NCBI GenBank assembly: GCA_963667465.2
Contig: CAXXDN010000001.1
Location: 576,001 to 640,000, forward strand
Direction: 5' to 3'
DNA length: 64,000 bases
DNA from: Dehalococcoidia bacterium
GTDB taxonomy: Bacteria; Chloroflexota; Dehalococcoidia; UBA2979
The translations under genes were made by a program, and so were the position numbers. Position 1 is the stretch's first letter, and every line of letters begins with the position of its first letter. The notes beneath the pieces are model-generated. The model saw only the letters and a list, made by a program, of their open reading frames with translations, searched no databases and was not told the origin of the DNA. Positions 6,864-13,045 of the stretch are shown one piece after another.

Positions 6864-9314
6864 CTATTCGAGCACCCCCGCCTCCTCGAGGCGCCGCACC
6901 GCCGCCTCGGGCATGCCGAGGTATTCGCCGAGCACCTCGACGTTGTGTGCGCCGAAGACGGGCGAGGGCAGGCGCAGGCTGGGCGGGGCCTCGGAGAGGC
7001 TCCACGCGTTGCCGTTGAGCAGCTCGTCGCCGGGGTAGTCGTCGTGCAGCCGGAAGCGCCGCCGCCGCTCGGCGAGGTGCGGGTCGGTGATCACCTCGCG
7101 GGCATCGAGGACGGGGAATGCCGGGACGCCTGCTGCCTGCAGGGCTGCCGCGAGCTCGCGCTTGTCGTGCGAGCCGGTCCAGGCGTTGATCGCGCGGTCC
7201 AGCTCCGTGCGCGCGGCGATCCGCCCCTCGCGTGTCGCGAAGTCTTCGCGCGCCAGCCAGTCCTCACGGCCGGCGAAGCGGGCGAGGGCGCGCCACTCGG
7301 CTTCCTCGCCGCAGGCGATGGCGATCCACTGGTCCTCGCCGCTGCAGCGGTAGATGCCGTGCGGCGCGAAGTAGCGGTGCGAGTTGCCGACGGGGCCCGC
7401 GCCGCGGCCGTTCCAGCTGTAGTCGATCACCGCCTCGGCGAGTCCCGCGATCCCCGCGTCGCCCTGCGCGAGCTCGATGAACTGGCCGCGCCCCGTGCGG
7501 GCGCGCGAGGCGAGCGCGGCGAGGATCGCGAGCGTCCCGTAGGCGGAGGCGATCGGGTCCAGCTCGGCCGCCTCCTCCATCACCGATCCGTCCTCCGGGT
7601 AACCGTTGAGGCTCTTCATCCCGAACAGCGCGGACAGCGAGGGCCCGTAGGTGATGAGGTCCGCCCACGGCCCGTCGAGGCCCGCCGAGGGCATCGCCAG
7701 CATGATCAGCCGCGGGTGTTCGGCTGTCAGGCGTGCGTAGTCGACACCGAAGGAGCGCATCACCCTCGGCGCGTAGTTGTCGACCACCACGTCGACGGCC
7801 CCGCAGAGGCGCTCGAACAGCGCGAGCCCGCCGGGCTCCGTGAGATCGAGGGCGATCGAGCGGCGGTTGCGCAGGATCCACTCCCAGGCGAGCGGCTCGG
7901 TGGGGTCGAAGCTGCCGGGCACGCCGGAGCCCCAGGGGCGCTTCGTGGTCTGCACCTTCACCACGTCCGCGCCGTAGTCGGCGAGGTAGCGGCTGACCAG
8001 CGGCCCCGCCCAGACCTGGCCGAGGTCGAGCACGCGCAGCCCGGCGAGCGGGCCGTCGGCGGGGTCCGCCGCGCCCGGGAAGTCGGAGGCGGCGGCCGGA
8101 CGCCAGGCGTCGGCGCGCGCGGGTGGCCAGGGCGGCGTGGTCCAGCCCTCGGCGTTCGACTCGTCGAGGCGCGGCGGCGTGCCGGGCGGGATCCAGGGGG
8201 TGCGGGCCAGCCGGTAGGGCGCGCCGGGGACACGCAGCGGCGGTTCGACGCCCGGCGCCTCGACGAGCAGGTCTCGCTCGGCGGCGTAATCGGACTCGCA
8301 GACCTCGGGGACCGTCAGCACGGGCTGGAAGGGGATGCGCTCGCGGCGGGTGATCTCCCACAGCTCGGCCTTCGTCAGCTGCGAGAGGTGGGCGACCATG
8401 TCCTCGCGCAGCACGCGCTGCACCCGCTCCGCCTGCTCGGGATCGAGGTTGCGGCGGACCCGCGCCTCGCCGAGGCCCCGGATCAGCTCGTCTCGTGCCC
8501 ATTCGGGGTTGCCGAGGCCGTCGAGGAACGCGGTCCAGTGCCGGCCCATGTGCGTCATCGTCGAGAGGTGCCCGTCCTTGACGGGGTAAACGCCCCAGAC
8601 GCCGCCGCTCAGGTTCTGCCCGTTCCGTTGCGGGATCGCCTGGCCGAGGTAGGCCACCTGCGGGATGCCGTGCCCCCAGACGGCGACGTTCACCGCCTCG
8701 AGCGCGCTGATGTCGACGAGCTGGCCGCGCCCGCTGCGGTCGCGATGGTGCAGCGCGATCAGCGTCGCCACGGCAGCCTGCACCCCGGCGTGCTGCACGT
8801 CGGCAGCGTCGAGGGGCGCCGTCAGCGGCTCGCGTTGCGGATCGCCGAGGCGGTAGGCGACGCCTGAGCCGCAGTAGGCGAGCAGCGGCGCGCCCTTCCA
8901 CTCCGCGTACGGCCCGCTCTGGCCGAAGGTGGTGACGGCCGTCAGGACCAGCCCCGGGTGCGCCGCGCGCAGGTGCTCCTCGCCGAGGCCCAGCGCCCGC
9001 GCCTCGTGCGGGCGGAAGGAGTGCAGCAGCACGTCGGCGCCGGTGAGCAGCGCGTCGAGGGCGGCGCGGCCGTCCTCGCTCGCCAGGTCGAGGCGCGCCC
9101 CGTCCTTGCCGCCGTTGAGGTAGGTGAACTGGCCGCTGCACTCAGGGTCCGGCTCGTCGCCGGGGAAGGGGCCGTGCTCGCGGATCGCGTCGCCCCCGGG
9201 AGGCTCGATCTTGATGACGGCGGCGCCGAGGTCGCGGAGTTGCTTGCCCGCGTAGGCGATGGCCTTACCTTCGCCGGCCTCGACAACGCGCAGGCCGGCG
9301 ACGGCGCCCGTCAT
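6864..9314 (-). CDS. Family III (CaiB/BaiF) CoA transferase with two tandem domains
   Basis: Two AGLRVV(E)/LAGLRVLDL N-terminal motifs, LGAAVIKIE and YGADVVKV, GRGQLVDIS and GRGQFIELA. Confidence 0.92.
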   Translation of the reverse strand: MTGAVAGLRVVEAGEGKAIAYAGKQLRDLGAAVIKIEPPGGDAIREHGPFPGDEPDPECSGQFTYLNGGKDGARLDLASEDGRAALDALLTGADVLLHSFRPHEARALGLGEEHLRAAHPGLVLTAVTTFGQSGPYAEWKGAPLLAYCGSGVAYRLGDPQREPLTAPLDAADVQHAGVQAAVATLIALHHRDRSGRGQLVDISALEAVNVAVWGHGIPQVAYLGQAIPQRNGQNLSGGVWGVYPVKDGHLSTMTHMGRHWTAFLDGLGNPEWARDELIRGLGEARVRRNLDPEQAERVQRVLREDMVAHLSQLTKAELWEITRRERIPFQPVLTVPEVCESDYAAERDLLVEAPGVEPPLRVPGAPYRLARTPWIPPGTPPRLDESNAEGWTTPPWPPARADAWRPAAASDFPGAADPADGPLAGLRVLDLGQVWAGPLVSRYLADYGADVVKVQTTKRPWGSGVPGSFDPTEPLAWEWILRNRRSIALDLTEPGGLALFERLCGAVDVVVDNYAPRVMRSFGVDYARLTAEHPRLIMLAMPSAGLDGPWADLITYGPSLSALFGMKSLNGYPEDGSVMEEAAELDPIASAYGTLAILAALASRARTGRGQFIELAQGDAGIAGLAEAVIDYSWNGRGAGPVGNSHRYFAPHGIYRCSGEDQWIAIACGEEAEWRALARFAGREDWLAREDFATREGRIAARTELDRAINAWTGSHDKRELAAALQAAGVPAFPVLDAREVITDPHLAERRRRFRLHDDYPGDELLNGNAWSLSEAPPSLRLPSPVFGAHNVEVLGEYLGMPEAAVRRLEEAGVLE

Positions 9315-9365
9315 ACCCGGTTGCCCAACTCCTGCCCGATCGCCTCGTCGTTCGCGTACTTCGTG

Positions 9366-10694
9366 CTAGGCGATGTTCGCGAACATCGGGTCGTCCTCGA
9401 TCGAGTACTCGTAGGGCTTGAGGTCCTCGGGCGGGGTCGAGGCGAGGCTGATCGGCACGTCGACCTCGAAGGGGCTCTTGAGGTCGAGTTCCTCGGCCAT
9501 CTCGCGCATGGCGGGGATGACCTTCTCGCCGATCAATTCGATGTTGCGCATGTTGTCGCGGTGGCTGATGTGGCCGTCGGTGGCGTAGAAGCTGACGATG
9601 CCGGGCCGGGTCTGCTCGAGCACCTTGCGCAGCTGGTCGATCGCGTGGTCCGGGTCGCCCATGATCCAGGTCAGGTCGTCCAGGTGCTTCTGCAGCGTCG
9701 CGCCGGTGTCGGCGCCGCCGCCGGCGGAGCGGAGGCCCTTCGCGCCGGTGCGCTGGTTGTTGCGGGCCACGGCGCCGCGCCGCCGCGCGACCGCGGCCGG
9801 CGAGTCCGGCGCGCCCCAGAGGTAGCCCGAGGGCGAACTCCATACCGGGTGGCCGAGGCCGGTGAACTCGCCCGCCATCCACATGAACTCGCGCGCGTTG
9901 CGCATCGCGTGCTCCATCGTGTCCTGCACGTGGAAGTGGATGGTCTGGCCGAAGTTCCAGGTGCCGACCTCGTAGCCCTTCTCGGCGGCGACCTCCTTGT
10001 AGGTGCCCATGATCCGCTTCTGCGCCCGCTCGTCCGTGCCGAGGCCGATGTAGGGGTAGCGGTGGGCTGCCGCCCACTGCACGGTCTCGAGGCTGGAGGT
10101 GCCGGGCACCCAGATGCGCGGGTGCGGCTTCTGGACGGGCAGCGCCCACGGGTTGACGACGCGGAAGTGGTACTGGTCACCCTCCCAGCGGAACGGTCCG
10201 GGCTCGGTCCAGGTCTTGATGATCAGGTCGTGTGCTTCCTCGAGGCGGTCACGGTTGTAGGCGGGGTTTGCGTTCATCGCGAACTGCTCGGTGCCGCCGC
10301 CGCGGATCAGGCCGGGCACGAGGCGGCCCTGCGAGATCATGTCGATCATGCCGAGTTCCTCGGCGGTCGCGACGGGGTTGTCGCGCAGCGGGAGGGGTAC
10401 GCCGAGCAGGACGATCTTCACGTTGTTGGTGACCGCCGCGAGGATCGAGGCCCAGATCTGGATCTGCGGCTGCATGCAGAACGGCGCGTTGTGGTGCTCG
10501 TTGAGCATGATGCCGTCGAAGCCGACCTCGTCGACGAGTTGGTACTCGGCGAGGCGGTCCTGGTAGATCTGGCTGCCCGCGTCGGAGTCGTAGAACTCGT
10601 TGGAGAAGCGGAGCACGGTCAGGCCGTCGCGCTTGCGGGCCTCCTCCTCCGGGTAGGCGGACATCGGCTGCTCGGTGAAGTACATGATGAACAT
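9366..10694 (-). CDS. LLM-class flavin-dependent monooxygenase
   Basis: GFDGIMLNEHH, AEELGMIDMISQGRL, PVQKPHPRIW; start MFIMYFTEQ. Confidence 0.9.
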   Translation of the reverse strand: MFIMYFTEQPMSAYPEEEARKRDGLTVLRFSNEFYDSDAGSQIYQDRLAEYQLVDEVGFDGIMLNEHHNAPFCMQPQIQIWASILAAVTNNVKIVLLGVPLPLRDNPVATAEELGMIDMISQGRLVPGLIRGGGTEQFAMNANPAYNRDRLEEAHDLIIKTWTEPGPFRWEGDQYHFRVVNPWALPVQKPHPRIWVPGTSSLETVQWAAAHRYPYIGLGTDERAQKRIMGTYKEVAAEKGYEVGTWNFGQTIHFHVQDTMEHAMRNAREFMWMAGEFTGLGHPVWSSPSGYLWGAPDSPAAVARRRGAVARNNQRTGAKGLRSAGGGADTGATLQKHLDDLTWIMGDPDHAIDQLRKVLEQTRPGIVSFYATDGHISHRDNMRNIELIGEKVIPAMREMAEELDLKSPFEVDVPISLASTPPEDLKPYEYSIEDDPMFANIA

Positions 10695-10882
10695 CGTCGG
10701 ACCCCGTTCGGTGTTCGCCCGCGCCGCCCGCCGGGCCGCGGACCAGGCGCCCGCGCGCCGCTCCGGCGCATCCGGGGGAGCATACCAGCACATCGCCTTC
10801 CGATCGGCGACTGTTGAGCGGACGAGGCGGTGGAGCGTCCCTCGCGCGGTACCCTGTGCGTGGATGCGATTCGGGGTGCGGT

Positions 10883-11140
10883 GTGGCGAGCGTCTGGCAG
10901 CGGTTGCGTCGAGCCGTTGCCGACCGCTTCGTGGGCTTCCACACCGCTTACCTCAACTTCCGCAACTACGATGCGCCGCTGGCGGTGAAGTGGCGGCTCC
11001 TCTGGCGCAACAACTGGATCAAGGCGCGCACCTTTTCGCTGTGCTGCGGCAACCTCGGCGAACCCGGCTGCTGACGGGACTTCGAGGAGCCCCGTGAGGG
11101 CTCGGAAGACCATCACCACGAGCACCCGCACCACCACTAG
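10883..11140 (+). CDS. Putative small selenoprotein, paralog 1 (CCGNLGEPGC-U-RDFEEPREGSEDHHHEHPHHH); in-frame TGA at 11072-11074
   Basis: GTG start after GGGGTG. The TGA follows a Cys and the frame stays open 21 codons to TAG 11138. SECIS-like hairpin 12 nt downstream. Same layout in paralog 2. Confidence 0.75.
11080..11108 (+). promoter_or_regulatory. Candidate bacterial SECIS element 1
   Basis: Upper stem GAGCCC-CGTGA-GGGCTC (11087-11103), lower stem CTTC/GAAG, G-containing apical loop, no U-tract. Confidence 0.72.
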
Positions 11141-11169
11141 CGGCGGGTTCGAGGCGCTACCCTGTAGCG

Positions 11170-11205
11170 GCGAGCGGCGGACCGGAGGCGAGCGGCGGAC
11201 CGGAG
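11170..11205. repeat. 18-bp tandem duplication that duplicates the GGAGG ribosome-binding site of paralog 2
   Basis: GCGAGCGGCGGACCGGAG x2. Confidence 0.85.
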
Positions 11206-11214
11206 GTGAGCGTG

Positions 11215-11469
11215 GTGAATCCCTGGCAGTGGCTGCGCGGCCTCGTCCTCGGCACTGTGCGGAGCTGGCGCACGACCTACCTCAACTTCCGTGACTACGA
11301 CGCGCCGCTCCTGGTCAAGGTCCGGCTCTTCGCCCGCAACAAGTGGACCATGGCGCGCACGCTCTCGCTGTGTTGCGGCAACCACGGCGAGCCCGGTTGC
11401 TGAAACGACTCCGGTGAGCCCCGTGAGGGCTCGGAGCACCACCACCACGACCACCCGCACGCGCATTAG
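11215..11469 (+). CDS. Putative small selenoprotein, paralog 2 (CCGNHGEPGC-U-NDSGEPREGSEHHHHDHPHAH); in-frame TGA at 11401-11403
   Basis: GGAGGT SD before GTG (11212 or 11215). TGA after Cys, then 21 open codons to TAG 11467. Identical hairpin at the same spacing as paralog 1. Confidence 0.75.
11409..11436 (+). promoter_or_regulatory. Candidate bacterial SECIS element 2
   Basis: Upper stem GAGCCC-CGTGA-GGGCTC (11416-11432), lower stem CTCC/GGAG. Confidence 0.72.
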
Positions 11470-11540
11470 CCGGCGTAGCCCGCCGCCCCCGGACGAGCGC
11501 GCCGCTCGACGGTCCGAGGCATCCGACTCATCCGCACCCC

Positions 11541-11593
11541 CTGGATTCCGGCTTTCGCCGGAATGACGGGACGGGGCGAGCCCGGAATGACGG
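11541..11593 (-). repeat. CGTCATTCC-tagged REP-like palindromes (one full, one partial)
   Basis: Reverse complement reads CGTCATTCCGGCGAAAGCCGGAATCCAG, plus a second CCGTCATTCCGGGCTCGC. Confidence 0.75.
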
Positions 11594-11656
11594 TTCTGTG
11601 GAGGTATCGAGCGGGGAGCGAGGGCCGGAGGATGCCGAACGCCCTCGAGAGTCGGG

Positions 11657-11790
11657 TGCGCCCTTGATGGTTCCGGGGGGCGTGGGGGCTTCGCCCCCAC
11701 AGAAAGAAAGTCCGAGGGTGGGTGGGCGGGGCCGAGCGGCGCGGAGCGCGTGCTCGCCCGGGATGGGGTGTGGGGGGCGCAGCCCTCCAC
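11657..11790. repeat. Dispersed ~130-bp GC-hairpin element, copy 2
   Basis: Collinear similarity to 5133-5266; GGGGGC-TTC-GCCCCC hairpin. Confidence 0.75.
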
Positions 11791-11959
11791 AGCAGACCGC
11801 CGTCGTCGTCGCTGGCCGCGCGGCACCCCCTCACCCCTACCCTCTCGGCAAGGGGAGTAGGGTGCCGGATCGCTCTCGCGGGCCCCGCCGTGTGGCACCG
11901 GCGGGCGGCGTCGTGTAGCGTCCGCCCGCGCCCGATCGCGCGCATCGAGGGGGTACGGG

Positions 11960-13045
11960 ATGAAAGCAGCAGTCTTCCACGGCGTGAACCAGCCGCTCAC
12001 CATCGAGGACATCGACGTCGACGAGCCGCGCGACTACGAGGTGCTGGTGCGCACCGCGGCCGCGGGCGTCTGCCACTCCGAGCTGCACATGATCGAAGGC
12101 CACTCGCCTGTGCCCCCGCCCTCCGTGCTCGGCCACGAGTCCGCAGGCGTCGTCGAGCGCGTCGGCAGCCGCGTGACCTACGTCCAGCCGGGCGACCACG
12201 TGATCGCCCGCGGCACCTTCTGCGGCCACTGCGAGATGTGCCTGACCGGGCACCTCAACGTCTGCACGAACCGTCCCGGCCGCGCCCCGGACGACGCCCC
12301 GGTGATGTCCTGGAACGGTGAGCGCCTCAACCAGTGGGGCTCCAACATCTTCGGCTGGTCGGAGCAGATGCTGCTGCACGAGAACGGCGTGGTGAAGATC
12401 TCGCCGGAGATGCCGCTCGACGCCGCCGCGCTGCTCGGCTGCGCCGTGATCACCGGCTTCGGCGCGGTGATGCGTACCGCGCAGGTCGAGGCCGGCAGCT
12501 CGATCGCGGTCTTTGGCTGCGGCGGCATCGGCCTGTCGGCGATCCAGGGCGGCGCCGTCTCCGGCTGCCAGCGCGTGATCGCCGTCGATCTGCTCGACTC
12601 CAAGCTCGAGGTCGCGCGCGAGTTCGGCGCGACCCACACCGTGAACGGATCGACCGAGGACCCCGTCGCCGCGATCCGCGAGATCGCGGACGGCGAGGGC
12701 GTGCACTACTCGTTCGACGCGATCGGCCTGGCGAGCGTGGCGATGCAGGCGCTCGACTGCCTGCGCCCGCAGGGCACCGCGACGCTGATCGGCGTGATTC
12801 CCGAGGAGACGCCGCTCAACTTCGGCTGGCGGCGGCTGAGCGGCGAAAAGCGGATCCAGGGCTGCATGATGGGCTCGAACCGCTTCCGCATGGACCTGCC
12901 GATGCTCGTGGACCTCTACATGCAGGGCCGGCTCAAGCTCGACGAGATGATCACCACCCGCGGCTCGCTCGAGGACGTCAACGACTTCCTGGAGATCATG
13001 AAGGGCGGCGCCGTCACCCGGCAGGTGATGATGATGGACTCGTAG
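11960..13045 (+). CDS. Zn-dependent alcohol dehydrogenase (MDR family)
   Basis: GVCHSE, GHES, CGHCEMC..C structural Zn site, GCGGIG. Confidence 0.93.
   Translation: MKAAVFHGVNQPLTIEDIDVDEPRDYEVLVRTAAAGVCHSELHMIEGHSPVPPPSVLGHESAGVVERVGSRVTYVQPGDHVIARGTFCGHCEMCLTGHLNVCTNRPGRAPDDAPVMSWNGERLNQWGSNIFGWSEQMLLHENGVVKISPEMPLDAAALLGCAVITGFGAVMRTAQVEAGSSIAVFGCGGIGLSAIQGGAVSGCQRVIAVDLLDSKLEVAREFGATHTVNGSTEDPVAAIREIADGEGVHYSFDAIGLASVAMQALDCLRPQGTATLIGVIPEETPLNFGWRRLSGEKRIQGCMMGSNRFRMDLPMLVDLYMQGRLKLDEMITTRGSLEDVNDFLEIMKGGAVTRQVMMMDS

Follow-up and report, generated by a model that had tools for sequence, protein, structure and literature searches.

Two tandem genes of a Dehalococcoidia bacterium probably encode Cys-Cys/Cys-Sec selenoproteins of a widespread family

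Results

Two tandem genes share a Cys-rich motif followed by TGA

In the genome of a Dehalococcoidia bacterium, two adjacent small reading frames each run into a TGA directly behind the same Cys-rich motif, and each stays open beyond it. The TGA could simply end two short genes, or it could be read as selenocysteine (Sec) in two small proteins whose function would then have to be explained. We addressed this question in the window, a 64,000-nucleotide stretch of one contig of this organism (assembly GCA_963667465.2, contig CAXXDN010000001.1, positions 576,001 to 640,000), and in relatives of the two genes from other genomes. The features are as follows, with Sec assignments predicted:

10883-11140, + strand: copy A gene (63 codons from the GTG start, then the Sec codon, a His-rich tail of 21 codons, and TAG)
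11072-11074, + strand: copy A UGA, predicted Sec codon of a Cys-Sec dyad
11075-11137, + strand: copy A post-Sec tail, RDFEEPREGSEDHHHEHPHHH, then TAG at 11138-11140
11080-11108, + strand: copy A SECIS-like hairpin (lower stem CUUC/GAAG; 6-bp upper stem GAGCCC/GGGCUC; loop CGUGA at 11093-11097; MFE -18.4 kcal/mol)
11212-11469, + strand: copy B gene (63 codons from the GTG start, then the Sec codon, a tail of 21 codons, and TAG)
11401-11403, + strand: copy B UGA, predicted Sec codon
11404-11466, + strand: copy B post-Sec tail, NDSGEPREGSEHHHHDHPHAH, then TAG at 11467-11469
11409-11436, + strand: copy B SECIS-like hairpin (lower stem CUCC/GGAG; upper stem GAGCCC/GGGCUC; loop CGUGA at 11422-11426; MFE -15.5 kcal/mol)

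A first, sequence-only reading of this DNA had described two adjacent paralogs with the motif CCGNxGEPGC, a TGA behind it, and 21 open codons from there to TAG, and this is what both frames contain: 63 codons finishing in CCGNxGEPGC, TGA, 21 in-frame codons, and TAG. The core of copy A ends in YLNFRNYDAPLAVKWRLLWRNNWIKARTFSLCCGNLGEPGC and that of copy B in YLNFRDYDAPLLVKVRLFARNKWTMARTLSLCCGNHGEPGC, each directly 5' of its TGA. We placed the start of copy A at GTG 10883 because the resulting 63-codon spacing is common to the orthologs. For copy B, the start is most likely GTG 11212, since homologs start MVNPWQW, with GTG 11206 as the alternative; GGAGGTGA lies 8-9 nt upstream of the copy B start. 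A 207-nt direct repeat (10935-11141 versus 11264-11470, 79% identity) covers core, TGA, and tail, and the two proteins are 62% identical. An Rfam search of positions 9000-13000 returned nothing above the gathering score; a Guanidine-III match at 11466-11523 reached 18.6 bits against a cut-off of 36 and was taken as chance.

The window pair is a tandem duplication limited to one subclade of the organism's genus. Among 19 genomes of the genus that were searched, 18 contained hits and six of these (own genome included) had two copies. Outside the genus, nearly all genomes carry a single copy.

The codon after PGC behaves as a Sec codon across several phyla

The sequence-only reading had proposed tabulating the codon behind EPGC, on the reasoning that an ordinary stop should appear as TAA or TAG as often as TGA. 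In a set of 121 unique copies of the gene, drawn from several phyla, this codon was TGA in 117, TGC in three, TAA in one, and TAG in none, so that TGA accounts for 117 of the 118 stop codons at this site. Recurrence in 117 of 121 unique copies from other genomes also places the arrangement beyond chance. By comparison, the final stops of 85 copies were distributed as TAG 41, TGA 33, and TAA 11, and TGA makes up 42% of the stops of long ORFs in the organism's own genome. We judged the family by the selenoprotein criteria in the available text of Haft and Gwadz (bioRxiv 10.1101/2022.07.06.499078), together with the bSECIS model in that of PMC13188914. By these criteria an in-frame TGA should recur at one site throughout or almost throughout the family, in ten or more examples, and homologs should align Cys with the UGA; both are found here.

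These Cys homologs are rare. Nine of 148 cluster representatives continue as ...GC-C-... into His-rich tails; the genomic TGC forms are at loci L131/L155, L160, and L162, and the Cys form of genome G047 ends in ...GCCD-TAA. In the Cys forms the tail is free of any SECIS constraint, yet it is His-rich.

Standard gene callers had been expected to cut these proteins at PGC. They do so consistently, with 105 of 109 database matches and 129 of 148 cluster representatives stopping there.

A conserved hairpin downstream of the UGA resembles a bacterial SECIS element

Numbering from the U of UGA, the apical loop of each window hairpin comprises nt 22-26, with G23 and U24 inside the 5-nt loop. The bacterial SECIS constraints available from PMC13188914 (Fig. 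2) are a loop of 3-9 nt, an upper stem of 4-16 bp, a UGA-loop distance of 16-37 nt, and an MFE of -7.5 kcal/mol or lower, with G at loop position one or two and then G or U. Both window hairpins fall within these limits (loop CGUGA of 5 nt, stem of 6 bp, spacing of 18 nt, MFE of -18.4 and -15.5 kcal/mol). The SECIS of the organism's own FdhA, with loop GGUCU, likewise occupies nt 22-26 and so has the same geometry, and the loop of its selD SECIS differs from that of the window hairpins.

The hairpin is conserved as RNA. The lower stem of copy B (CUCC/GGAG) is compensatory relative to that of copy A (CUUC/GAAG), and across the family 94% of 168 cells were paired, 21 cells were compensatory, and both-sided changes occurred in four of six pairs, compared with at most 52% pairing in slid controls. 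Hairpins with 5 bp or more and a GU in the loop at nt 19-26 were present in 80 of 85 copies versus 62 of 1651 control TGA sites. It is kept even in members whose frame closes after 2-7 codons, and it was not found in L131, the TGC form examined. Its folding energy is unremarkable against shuffled GC-rich sequence (z of -1.6 and -0.74), and a terminator scan of the hairpin found none, nor is there a T-run.

The tail is under protein-level constraint within the genus

If the UGA is read through, then the 21 codons behind it should evolve as coding sequence, and conservation 3' of the TGA had been put forward as a check. Within the genus the tail is conserved, with pN/pS of 0.54 for copy A and 0.11 for copy B (pS 0.26, versus 0.21 in the core), and a relative's contig carries an in-frame 9-nt insertion in the copy A tail. 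The in-frame indels and the low pN/pS of the copy B tail argue that the tail is translated; the hairpin itself accounts for part of the conservation, and across genera the sequence of the tail is variable.

Family-wide, the tail extends for 2-37 residues after the Sec position. At least two His were found in the tail of 68 of 118 unique members, some members have a His-rich N terminus in place of a His-rich tail, and 47 of 118 have fewer than two His at either end. The His-rich tail that had been described is thus real in both window copies, but it is not general, and its absence from 47 unique members makes it an accessory feature.

The genome encodes Sec machinery

We searched the organism's own genome for the Sec genes, as had been suggested, and found all four: selA (517 bits), selB (299 bits), selD (358 bits; interrupted by one in-frame TGA), and tRNA-Sec (selC; 77 bits, anticodon tca). 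It also has an FdhA-like gene with an ...NRTUHAPS motif. In two sets of family-carrying genomes, selA scored above the cut-off in 31 of 33 and 42 of 45. Three genomes with TGA forms had no selA over the cut-off (G053, G303, and G382); all are fragmented (160-230 contigs), congeners of G303 and G382 have selA, and G053 is only 85% complete. Among four genomes with Cys forms, selA was not found in two (G047 and G197). Because selA is common in the phylum anyway (308 of 401), its co-occurrence with the family discriminates only weakly.

Taken against these data, an alternative is that UGA is an ordinary stop, that the product is a 63-residue protein ending in PGC, that the hairpin is an mRNA-stabilizing or terminator structure, and that the tail is incidental. 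The public gene calls and the unexceptional hairpin energies agree with it, and since Sec insertion in bacteria is inefficient, a truncated product probably coexists with the full-length one. An ordinary stop, however, does not account for the near-exclusive use of TGA at this site in genes that end on all three stops, for homologs with Cys at the exact position that continue into His-rich tails, for a hairpin without a T-run whose loop G23/U24 and spacing agree with those of the organism's FdhA SECIS, or for in-frame indels and low pN/pS in the tail, and we consider it very improbable. On the comparative evidence, both genes almost certainly encode Sec-containing proteins of a widespread family, and we hold with high confidence that this is a genuine selenoprotein family.

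The family is large and is probably undescribed

The family comprises 477 clusters at 50% identity, with relatives in at least 423 species genomes; carriers belong to Chloroflexota, Actinomycetota, Dormibacterota, and Firmicutes-like MAGs. Members have 46-65 residues before Sec. Those of Dehalogenimonas appear in GenBank/RefSeq as 47-aa "hypothetical protein" entries, and a search of the ESM Atlas with the table-11 ORF returned clusters of about 56-60 aa, all of them unnamed "hypothetical protein" entries. Comparison with selenoprotein HMM collections, another of the proposed checks, gave no match: Pfam and NCBIfam searches came back empty, at E up to 10 with the two window proteins and at E up to 1 with 25 members. 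In the PDB no relative was found by sequence (one chance match, E 0.86) or by fold (Foldseek, 0 matches). A search for longer or fused forms scored nothing, which is weak evidence.

We also compared the family with published selenoproteins. None of the 119 families in the available Table 1 of a 2026 review (PMC13188914), all with domain IDs, fits it, the model searches covering those with a Pfam or NCBIfam entry, all but the few listed under cd or PTHR models alone; the families of Haft and Tolstoy 2025 were compared through their NCBIfam models and the available table of the same review. Neither the motif strings nor the accession numbers occurred in the papers searched, and a listing of the family in the supplementary tables of selenoprotein surveys is possible. 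In all likelihood the family has not been described before.

Several known proteins come closest to it. Mammalian thioredoxin reductase (TrxR) has a C-terminal Gly-Cys-Sec-Gly redox center. The likeness lies in a Gly-Cys-Sec dyad on a flexible C-terminal stretch, with a nearby dithiol able to reduce it; the window family, in contrast, is a stand-alone module with no flavoprotein domain and with a His-rich tail, and its reducing partner would be the vicinal Cys pair of the same loop. In the desulforedoxin-type Fe(Cys)4 center, two adjacent cysteines bind one iron. It sets a precedent for very small proteins that build a mononuclear metal site from a vicinal Cys pair plus two further thiolates, although there is no sequence or fold relation (no Pfam match, 0 Foldseek matches) and the window motif has two vicinal pairs, one of them with Sec. 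The HdrB-type CCG domain (PF02754; C-Xn-CCG-Xm-CxxC) has only the CCG tripeptide in common and gave no Pfam match.

KCU-star/DUF466 proteins (PF04328, NF033934) are alike in being about 60 aa long, in having a vicinal Cys-Cys/Cys-Sec dyad near the C terminus, in comprising Sec and Cys forms within one family, and in being truncated by gene callers. Escherichia coli YbdD and YjiX end in Arg-Cys-Cys, and the Campylobacter forms in Lys-Cys-Sec. There is no homology with the window family, which has no Pfam or NCBIfam match: an hhalign comparison with YbdD aligned only two Cys (probability 0.5%), and a PF04328 search found nothing in 101 genomes of the class, own genome included. Unlike KCU-star proteins, the window family has a second CC dyad seven residues upstream and a tail of 2-37 residues after Sec, and no CstA-type transporter neighbors the family loci examined.

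MbdU (NF045648), a metal-binding double selenoprotein, is said to have been described originally by Haft and Tolstoy in 2025. Its row in the available Table 1 of PMC13188914 lists a CU motif, and it resembles the window family in this motif and in predicted metal binding; compared by NCBIfam model and table row, it differs in having two Sec rather than one, and its model gave no match. SaoC (NF040734) belongs, in the available text of bioRxiv 10.1101/2022.07.06.499078, to the SAO organometallic system as its Cys-Cys-COOH (seleno)protein, about 158 aa long with a signal or lipoprotein peptide and a nine-gene SAO neighborhood. The points of likeness are a "dark matter" protein with a terminal CC/CU motif, a SECIS loop with GGU, and a proposed soft-metal contact. 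In contrast, the window family has 46-65 aa before Sec, no hydrophobic leader, no SAO neighbors, and no HMM match.

Metal binding is the most likely function, with a redox relay as the main rival

From the sequence and a structural model, we propose the following pathway. The ribosome would reach the UGA immediately after ...CCGNxGEPGC, and the 3' SECIS hairpin, whose apical loop of 5 nt contains G23 and U24, would recruit SelB with Sec-tRNA(Sec). Sec would be inserted and translation would continue for 21 codons to TAG, giving a product of about 85 aa. This protein is modeled, at moderate confidence, as a basic amphipathic helical hairpin followed by a loop and an acidic His-rich tail (AlphaFold2 pLDDT of 72.7, moderate, for copy B and 56.1, low, for a Cys form). 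The invariant Gly/Pro-rich loop would bring the vicinal Cys-Cys and the vicinal Cys-Sec together (CC-x7-CU), and this loop may hold a metal ion in a four-chalcogen (S3Se) site. The His/Asp tail, which roughly 60% of members have, both window copies among them, may act as a metal-capturing arm. A hydrophobicity scan found no segment at transmembrane level and no hydrophobic leader, which speaks against the membrane association that had been suggested; we picture instead a small cytosolic selenoprotein that may bind, buffer, or deliver metal.

Metal binding is the most likely function, and we put it forward tentatively. The His-rich tails of 68 members, their retention in the Cys forms, and the His-rich N termini of others all point to it. 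Haft and Gwadz (bioRxiv 10.1101/2022.07.06.499078) argue, in the available text, that CC and CU motifs signal heavy-metal interaction. A nickel chaperone for hydrogenase or urease is unlikely, because the organism's own genome (93.6% complete) was found to have no NiFe hydrogenase, no ureG, and only a weak hypB-like match.

The main rival is a redox relay, in which CC and CU would be redox-active vicinal dichalcogenides and Cys-Cys would reduce a Cys-Sec selenenylsulfide, as the N-terminal dithiol does for the GCUG arm of mammalian TrxR. This small basic protein would then shuttle electrons as a free-standing module, or serve a partner enzyme by reducing peroxides or disulfides. Where Sec is kept almost exclusively, it is more typically a catalytic redox residue than a structural metal ligand, and the Sec form dominates here (117 of 121 copies). 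The motif is near-palindromic (CCG...GCU), and the core is conserved without a His segment in 47 of 118 members. Gene neighborhoods offer further hints. In two Dehalogenimonas genomes a class-I pyridine-nucleotide-disulfide oxidoreductase lies at least 13 nt downstream on the same strand; 21 of 80 loci sit directly behind leuCD, which encodes an oxidation-sensitive [4Fe-4S] dehydratase, and three more have the order leuD-X-leuB; and one locus adjoins a ferredoxin-thioredoxin reductase beta chain. The oxidoreductase adjacency, however, occurs in only two of 158 scanned loci, which are closely related, and the proteins have neither a thioredoxin-like fold nor a CxxC/CxxU motif. A pure relay also offers no obvious role for the His-rich arms, which about 60% of members have at one terminus or the other and which Cys forms have too. 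We regard a redox relay as possible but rather unlikely.

No neighbors are shared across genera except for the leuCD link, which belongs to one large subgroup. In the window itself the neighbors are a luciferase-like monooxygenase, a CoA-transferase III, and a Zn-dehydrogenase, and these are genus-specific.

The two window paralogs had also been suggested to act as a heterodimer. The copies are adjacent and 62% identical, six species of the genus have retained both, each group of orthologs being conserved, and an independent tandem pair occurs in G058, a genome of another family, all of which would suit an obligate A-B pair. However, just one copy is present in 12 of the 18 genomes with hits inside the genus and in nearly all others, and the two window copies have separate starts and upstream regions. 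The single copy in most genomes means that the family functions without a paralogous partner, so the heterodimer does not hold as a general mode, and for the window pair we consider an obligate one improbable. Finally, a precursor of a ribosomally made, post-translationally modified selenopeptide of the selenobacteriocin kind, which the small size and the Cys/Sec-rich region near the C terminus might recall, is scarcely credible given that no maturase, radical-SAM partner, or transporter recurs (a HemN-like radical SAM enzyme is present at one locus only), that the TIGR04081 selenobacteriocin model gave no match, and that the conserved part is a 50-residue helical core rather than a leader plus core.

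Discussion

A Sec-containing family with a possible metal site, duplicated in tandem in the window, is very probably the best explanation of this locus as a whole. Of the sequence-only reading, the Cys-Cys...Cys-Sec selenoproteins cut short at PGC stand; the heterodimer as a general mode and the membrane association are not supported, and the His tail is an accessory feature.

The family would be a large and phylogenetically broad addition to the roughly 119 known prokaryotic selenoprotein families, in lineages (Dehalococcoidia, other Chloroflexota, and Acidimicrobiia) whose selenoproteomes have mostly been inferred by homology to known families. The authors of deep-Sep note, in the available text (PMC12013277), that selenoproteins without Cys homologs may escape current predictors at their homology step. 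This step, together with the rarity of Cys homologs, may partly explain why the family was overlooked. The truncated 47-63-aa "hypothetical proteins" carried by RefSeq and GenBank make the annotation correctable, and because cultured Dehalogenimonas strains carry the family, the product of read-through can be tested for directly, as can the metal it contains and its redox behavior. As a very compact four-chalcogen motif, the CC-x7-CU loop may also interest protein engineers.

Our boldest reading, which we consider doubtful, is that the core of about 50 residues is a self-contained active site in which Cys-Cys faces Cys-Sec on a helical hairpin, either as a free-standing selenenylsulfide arm or as an S3Se metal center. 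If true, it would be the first free-standing equivalent of the selenenylsulfide arm of thioredoxin reductase, or a new S3Se mononuclear metal center with a Sec ligand, and the placement behind leuCD would hint at a role in the protection or repair of oxygen-labile [4Fe-4S] dehydratases.

Tandem genes for probable selenoproteins and the Sec machinery of the source genome

Translation of window positions 10500-11800 with TGA as Sec gave two tandem paralogs on the plus strand, copy A and copy B, and re-reading the window bore out the sequence-only reading's description of the pair, its TGAs, and its 21-codon tails in all details.

Features of copies A and B in the window
GTG at 10883, plus strand: start of copy A
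11072-11074, plus strand: in-frame TGA of copy A, after 63 codons ending ...SLCCGNxGEPGC
21 codons past that TGA, then TAG, plus strand: copy A tail, RDFEEPREGSEDHHHEHPHHH
GTG at 11212, plus strand: most likely start of copy B (database homologs begin MVNPWQW; GGAGGTGA lies just upstream)
11401-11403, plus strand: in-frame TGA of copy B, after 63 codons ending ...SLCCGNxGEPGC
21 codons past that TGA, then TAG, plus strand: copy B tail, NDSGEPREGSEHHHHDHPHAH

A 207-nt direct repeat with 79% identity spans the core (the part before Sec), the TGA, and the tail; the two proteins are 62% identical. The spacer contains an exact 18-nt tandem direct repeat of two units (11169-11204) ending just before the copy B start, and one unit is missing in a relative's contig (18 nt left out at 11169). 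Near-identical DNA to window positions 10800-11427 occurs in runs labelled sponge metagenome, and one contig from these matches over 628 nt without a difference. At 6864-9314, on the minus strand, an 816-aa protein comprises a pair of CoA-transferase family III domains. Sister species of the genus have two separate genes for CoA-transferases (~400-440 aa) directly upstream of the selenoprotein gene.

The source genome (2.97 Mb, 70.7% G+C, two contigs, 93.6% complete) was searched for selA, selB, selC, and selD, the check that the sequence-only reading had proposed, and all were found: selA (517 bits), selB (299 bits), selD (358 bits), and, for selC, a tRNA-Sec with anticodon tca (ARAGORN, 77 bits). 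The selD gene is itself a selenoprotein gene, with one in-frame TGA near the N terminus (L010:1531-1533, C1:106777), and an FdhA-like molybdopterin oxidoreductase on the minus strand of contig C2 has an in-frame TGA (L184:1831-1833) in the classic ...CNRT-U-HAPS... context. At 70.7% G+C, TGA is expected as the dominant stop codon; long ORFs of this genome stop at TAG in 52%, TGA in 42%, and TAA in 6% (566, 466, and 66, respectively), and TAG as the commonest stop could reflect TGA avoidance in a Sec-decoding lineage.

A conserved SECIS-like hairpin follows both TGAs

The same hairpin lies 3' of both TGAs: above a 4-bp lower stem, an upper stem of 6 bp (GAGCCC/GGGCUC) closes the 5-nt loop CGUGA, at nt 22-26 from the U of UGA. 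The lower stem is CUUC/GAAG in copy A and CUCC/GGAG in copy B, a compensatory change. The bacterial SECIS model in the Fig. 2 legend of a 2026 review (PMC13188914) allows loops of 3-9 nt and upper stems of 4-16 bp, places G within the first two loop positions, as a rule with G or U next, and sets a UGA-to-loop distance of 16-37 nt and an MFE of ≤ -7.5 kcal/mol; both hairpins lie within every constraint of that legend (MFE -18.4 in copy A and -15.5 in copy B). The FdhA SECIS of the source genome has the loop GGUCU, also at nt 22-26 and closed by a C-G pair as in copies A and B, so that G23 and U24 coincide between the two. In E. coli fdhF, SelB binding likewise depends on these positions. The loop of the selD hairpin is unlike either.

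Since the energies of both hairpins are unremarkable against shuffles of GC-rich sequence (z -1.6 and -0.74), the argument for the hairpin rests on conservation and not on stability. In an alignment of 28 copies (27 genomes) over the 55 nt that begin at the TGA, 94% of the 168 cells of the upper stem paired, with both-side changes in four of its six pairs and 21 compensatory cells, versus at most 52% pairing in controls whose partner was shifted by 1-3 columns. The covariation score was reached by 0 of 500 column shuffles, a comparison that related sequences can beat without any structure. Of 85 copies on 80 named contigs, 80 have a hairpin with 5 bp or more in which a loop beginning 19-26 nt after the U contains GU, versus 62 of 1651 other TGA trinucleotides of the same loci. 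The hairpin is kept at loci L040 and L046, where the frame closes after only 2 or 7 codons, which indicates that it is not a by-product of protein conservation. A terminator scan found no T-run at the hairpin.

TGA follows PGC in nearly all copies

The sequence-only reading had named the codon after PGC as the decisive test, and the outcome supports Sec. Among 121 unique copies (duplicates removed, one TGA locus from an unpublished genome left out), it is TGA in 117, TGC in 3, TAA in 1, and TAG in none. When 61 relatives were searched in six frames, 33 genomes had matches, with an in-frame TGA in 37 of 39 match rows. Scanning one genome per species for the peptide pattern CCG[NR]xG[EQ]PGC, which is blind to the next codon, yielded at least 580 stretches and at least 423 confirmed relatives; the best 80 loci of these hold 85 copies (TGA 83, TGC 1, TAA 1), whose final stops are TAG in 41, TGA in 33, and TAA in 11. 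An even phylum sample of 401 genomes contained a family match in 45 (unpublished genomes G201 and G327 counted in), and 28 loci with the motif had TGA (25, one from an unpublished genome) or TGC (3). The sole TAA case, L114, looks like a mutated Sec codon, because a tail homologous to the one at locus L089 still follows in frame.

selA exceeded the cut-off in 31 of the 33 family-bearing relatives and in 42 of the 45 family-bearing genomes of the phylum sample; since it is present in 308 of all 401 (the sample's selA counts include the unpublished G201, G327, G283, G097, and G229), this association is weak evidence. No selA passed the cut-off in the TGA-form genomes G053, G303, and G382, assemblies of 160-230 contigs.

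At an E-value limit of 0.001, a HMMER search of 1.84 billion proteins gave 477 hits. Among 148 cluster representatives, 129 stop exactly at ...GC; others read on with Cys (9), Trp (4), or Arg (1) at the Sec position, the Trp cases probably coming from gene prediction with TGA read as Trp. At the DNA level, Cys forms have TGC at loci L131 and L155, end TGC-GAA-TGA at L160 and L162, and end ...GCCD-TAA in genome G047. No hairpin was found in the TGC form L131, and in two of the four Cys-form genomes, G047 and G197, the search for selA found none. Because Cys forms carry His-rich tails (e.g., ...DAHPHDHQH or ...GHHHGEEEDVEK), the tail is a protein feature that persists where there is no SECIS. 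Several Cys forms (P0134, P0253, and L131) have an extra Cys 5-6 residues past a Cys-Cys that replaces Cys-Sec (GCC-x4,5-C-[SQ]-I), which may be an added ligand in these sulfur-only versions.

Tails within the genus are separated by in-frame indels, e.g., of HPD repeats, and in a relative's contig the copy A tail is longer by a 9-nt insertion, with both TGAs unchanged. In summed ortholog pairs, which are not independent, pS is as high in the copy B tail (0.26) as in its core (0.21), with a tail pN of 0.028 (pN/pS 0.11); the copy A tail has pN/pS 0.54.

Distribution and novelty of the family

Among the matches listed, named contigs come from Dehalococcoidia, Anaerolineae, Thermoflexus, Tepidiformales, Chloroflexia, Acidimicrobiia and other Actinomycetota, Dormibacterota, a Pelotomaculum MAG, and an Eubacteriales MAG; one database entry is labelled Deltaproteobacteria. 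Exact look-up identified the cultured carriers Dehalogenimonas alkenigignens (KTB47551.1, WP_186007569.1), strain WBC-2 (AKG54121.1), and D. lykanthroporepellens BL-DC-9 (ADJ26490.1), and all of these entries are 47-aa "hypothetical proteins" stopping at PGC.

Neither the window proteins (E up to 10) nor 25 diverse members (E up to 1) matched Pfam or NCBIfam release 20, the sole marginal rows reflecting the composition of His tails. Table 1 of PMC13188914 (May 2026) lists 119 selenoprotein families and subfamilies with a domain model in every row, and comparison with the whole table found no row corresponding to this family. BSepDB (PMC13326102) gives 111 as its count of known families, and deep-Sep (PMC12013277), by its own account, may miss selenoproteins without Cys homologs. 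The motif strings and Dehalogenimonas accessions appear in no paper of the literature searched; supplementary tables may hold a prior listing. It is nearly settled that copies A and B are selenoproteins of a new family.

Protein architecture and possible function

AlphaFold2 (149-row alignment) predicted for copy B helices at 6-30 and 35-52, then the CCG...GCU loop, and beyond it a tail without order (pLDDT 72.7 on average; helix 2, 86-89; loop, 74-79); a natural Cys form gave the same topology at low confidence (56.1). The predicted helices are amphipathic (hydrophobic moment 0.41-0.56), and no 19-residue window comes near transmembrane hydrophobicity. The copy B core has a net charge of +6 and its tail, with seven His, -4. 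Across 149-150 sequences, CC, the Gly, and the last Cys are invariant, and the columns N, K, N, G, G, and P nearly so. Among 118 unique members, 68 have at least two His in the tail, 3 at the N terminus only, and 47 fewer than two at either end; 15 begin with Met-Cys. No relative by sequence or fold was found in the PDB, and a search for a fused longer form, which is weak evidence, found none. The heterodimer suggested in the sequence-only reading fails as an explanation for the whole family: of the 18 hit-bearing genomes of the genus, only 6 carry two copies, and outside it there is one independent tandem pair, in a genome of another family of the class (G058:C5:231436-231826).

We found no conserved gene neighbourhood across genera. 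The sole recurrent link is with leucine genes: at 21 of the best 80 loci, LeuC and then a LeuD-type aconitase small subunit are encoded on the same strand immediately upstream. In many Chloroflexota the family gene follows leuC-leuD after a very short spacer (e.g., L117:1-1500), and at L136, L153, and L066, with a different LeuCD type, the order is leuD, family gene, leuB. At two Dehalogenimonas loci (L163:685-3177 and L164), the gene is flanked by a DUF1295 membrane protein and, directly after it on the same strand, a class-I pyridine-nucleotide-disulfide oxidoreductase (489 aa). A DUF1295/ERG4-like gene also adjoins the family gene in genome G056. NiFe hydrogenase and ureG were not found in the source genome, where the hypB-like match was weak only.

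The main rival reading of the CC-x7-CU loop is a redox relay between its vicinal Cys-Cys and Cys-Sec pairs, and it is favoured by the near-exclusive retention of Sec, by the existence of members without His, and by neighbouring genes whose products are oxidation-sensitive or are disulfide reductases. Haft and Gwadz (bioRxiv 10.1101/2022.07.06.499078) argue that a CC or CU motif is a sign of contact with soft metals. Because of this argument and the His-rich arms at either terminus, Cys forms included, we favour a putative metal site in which the four chalcogens of the loop would bind metal supplied, where present, by the His/Asp arm.
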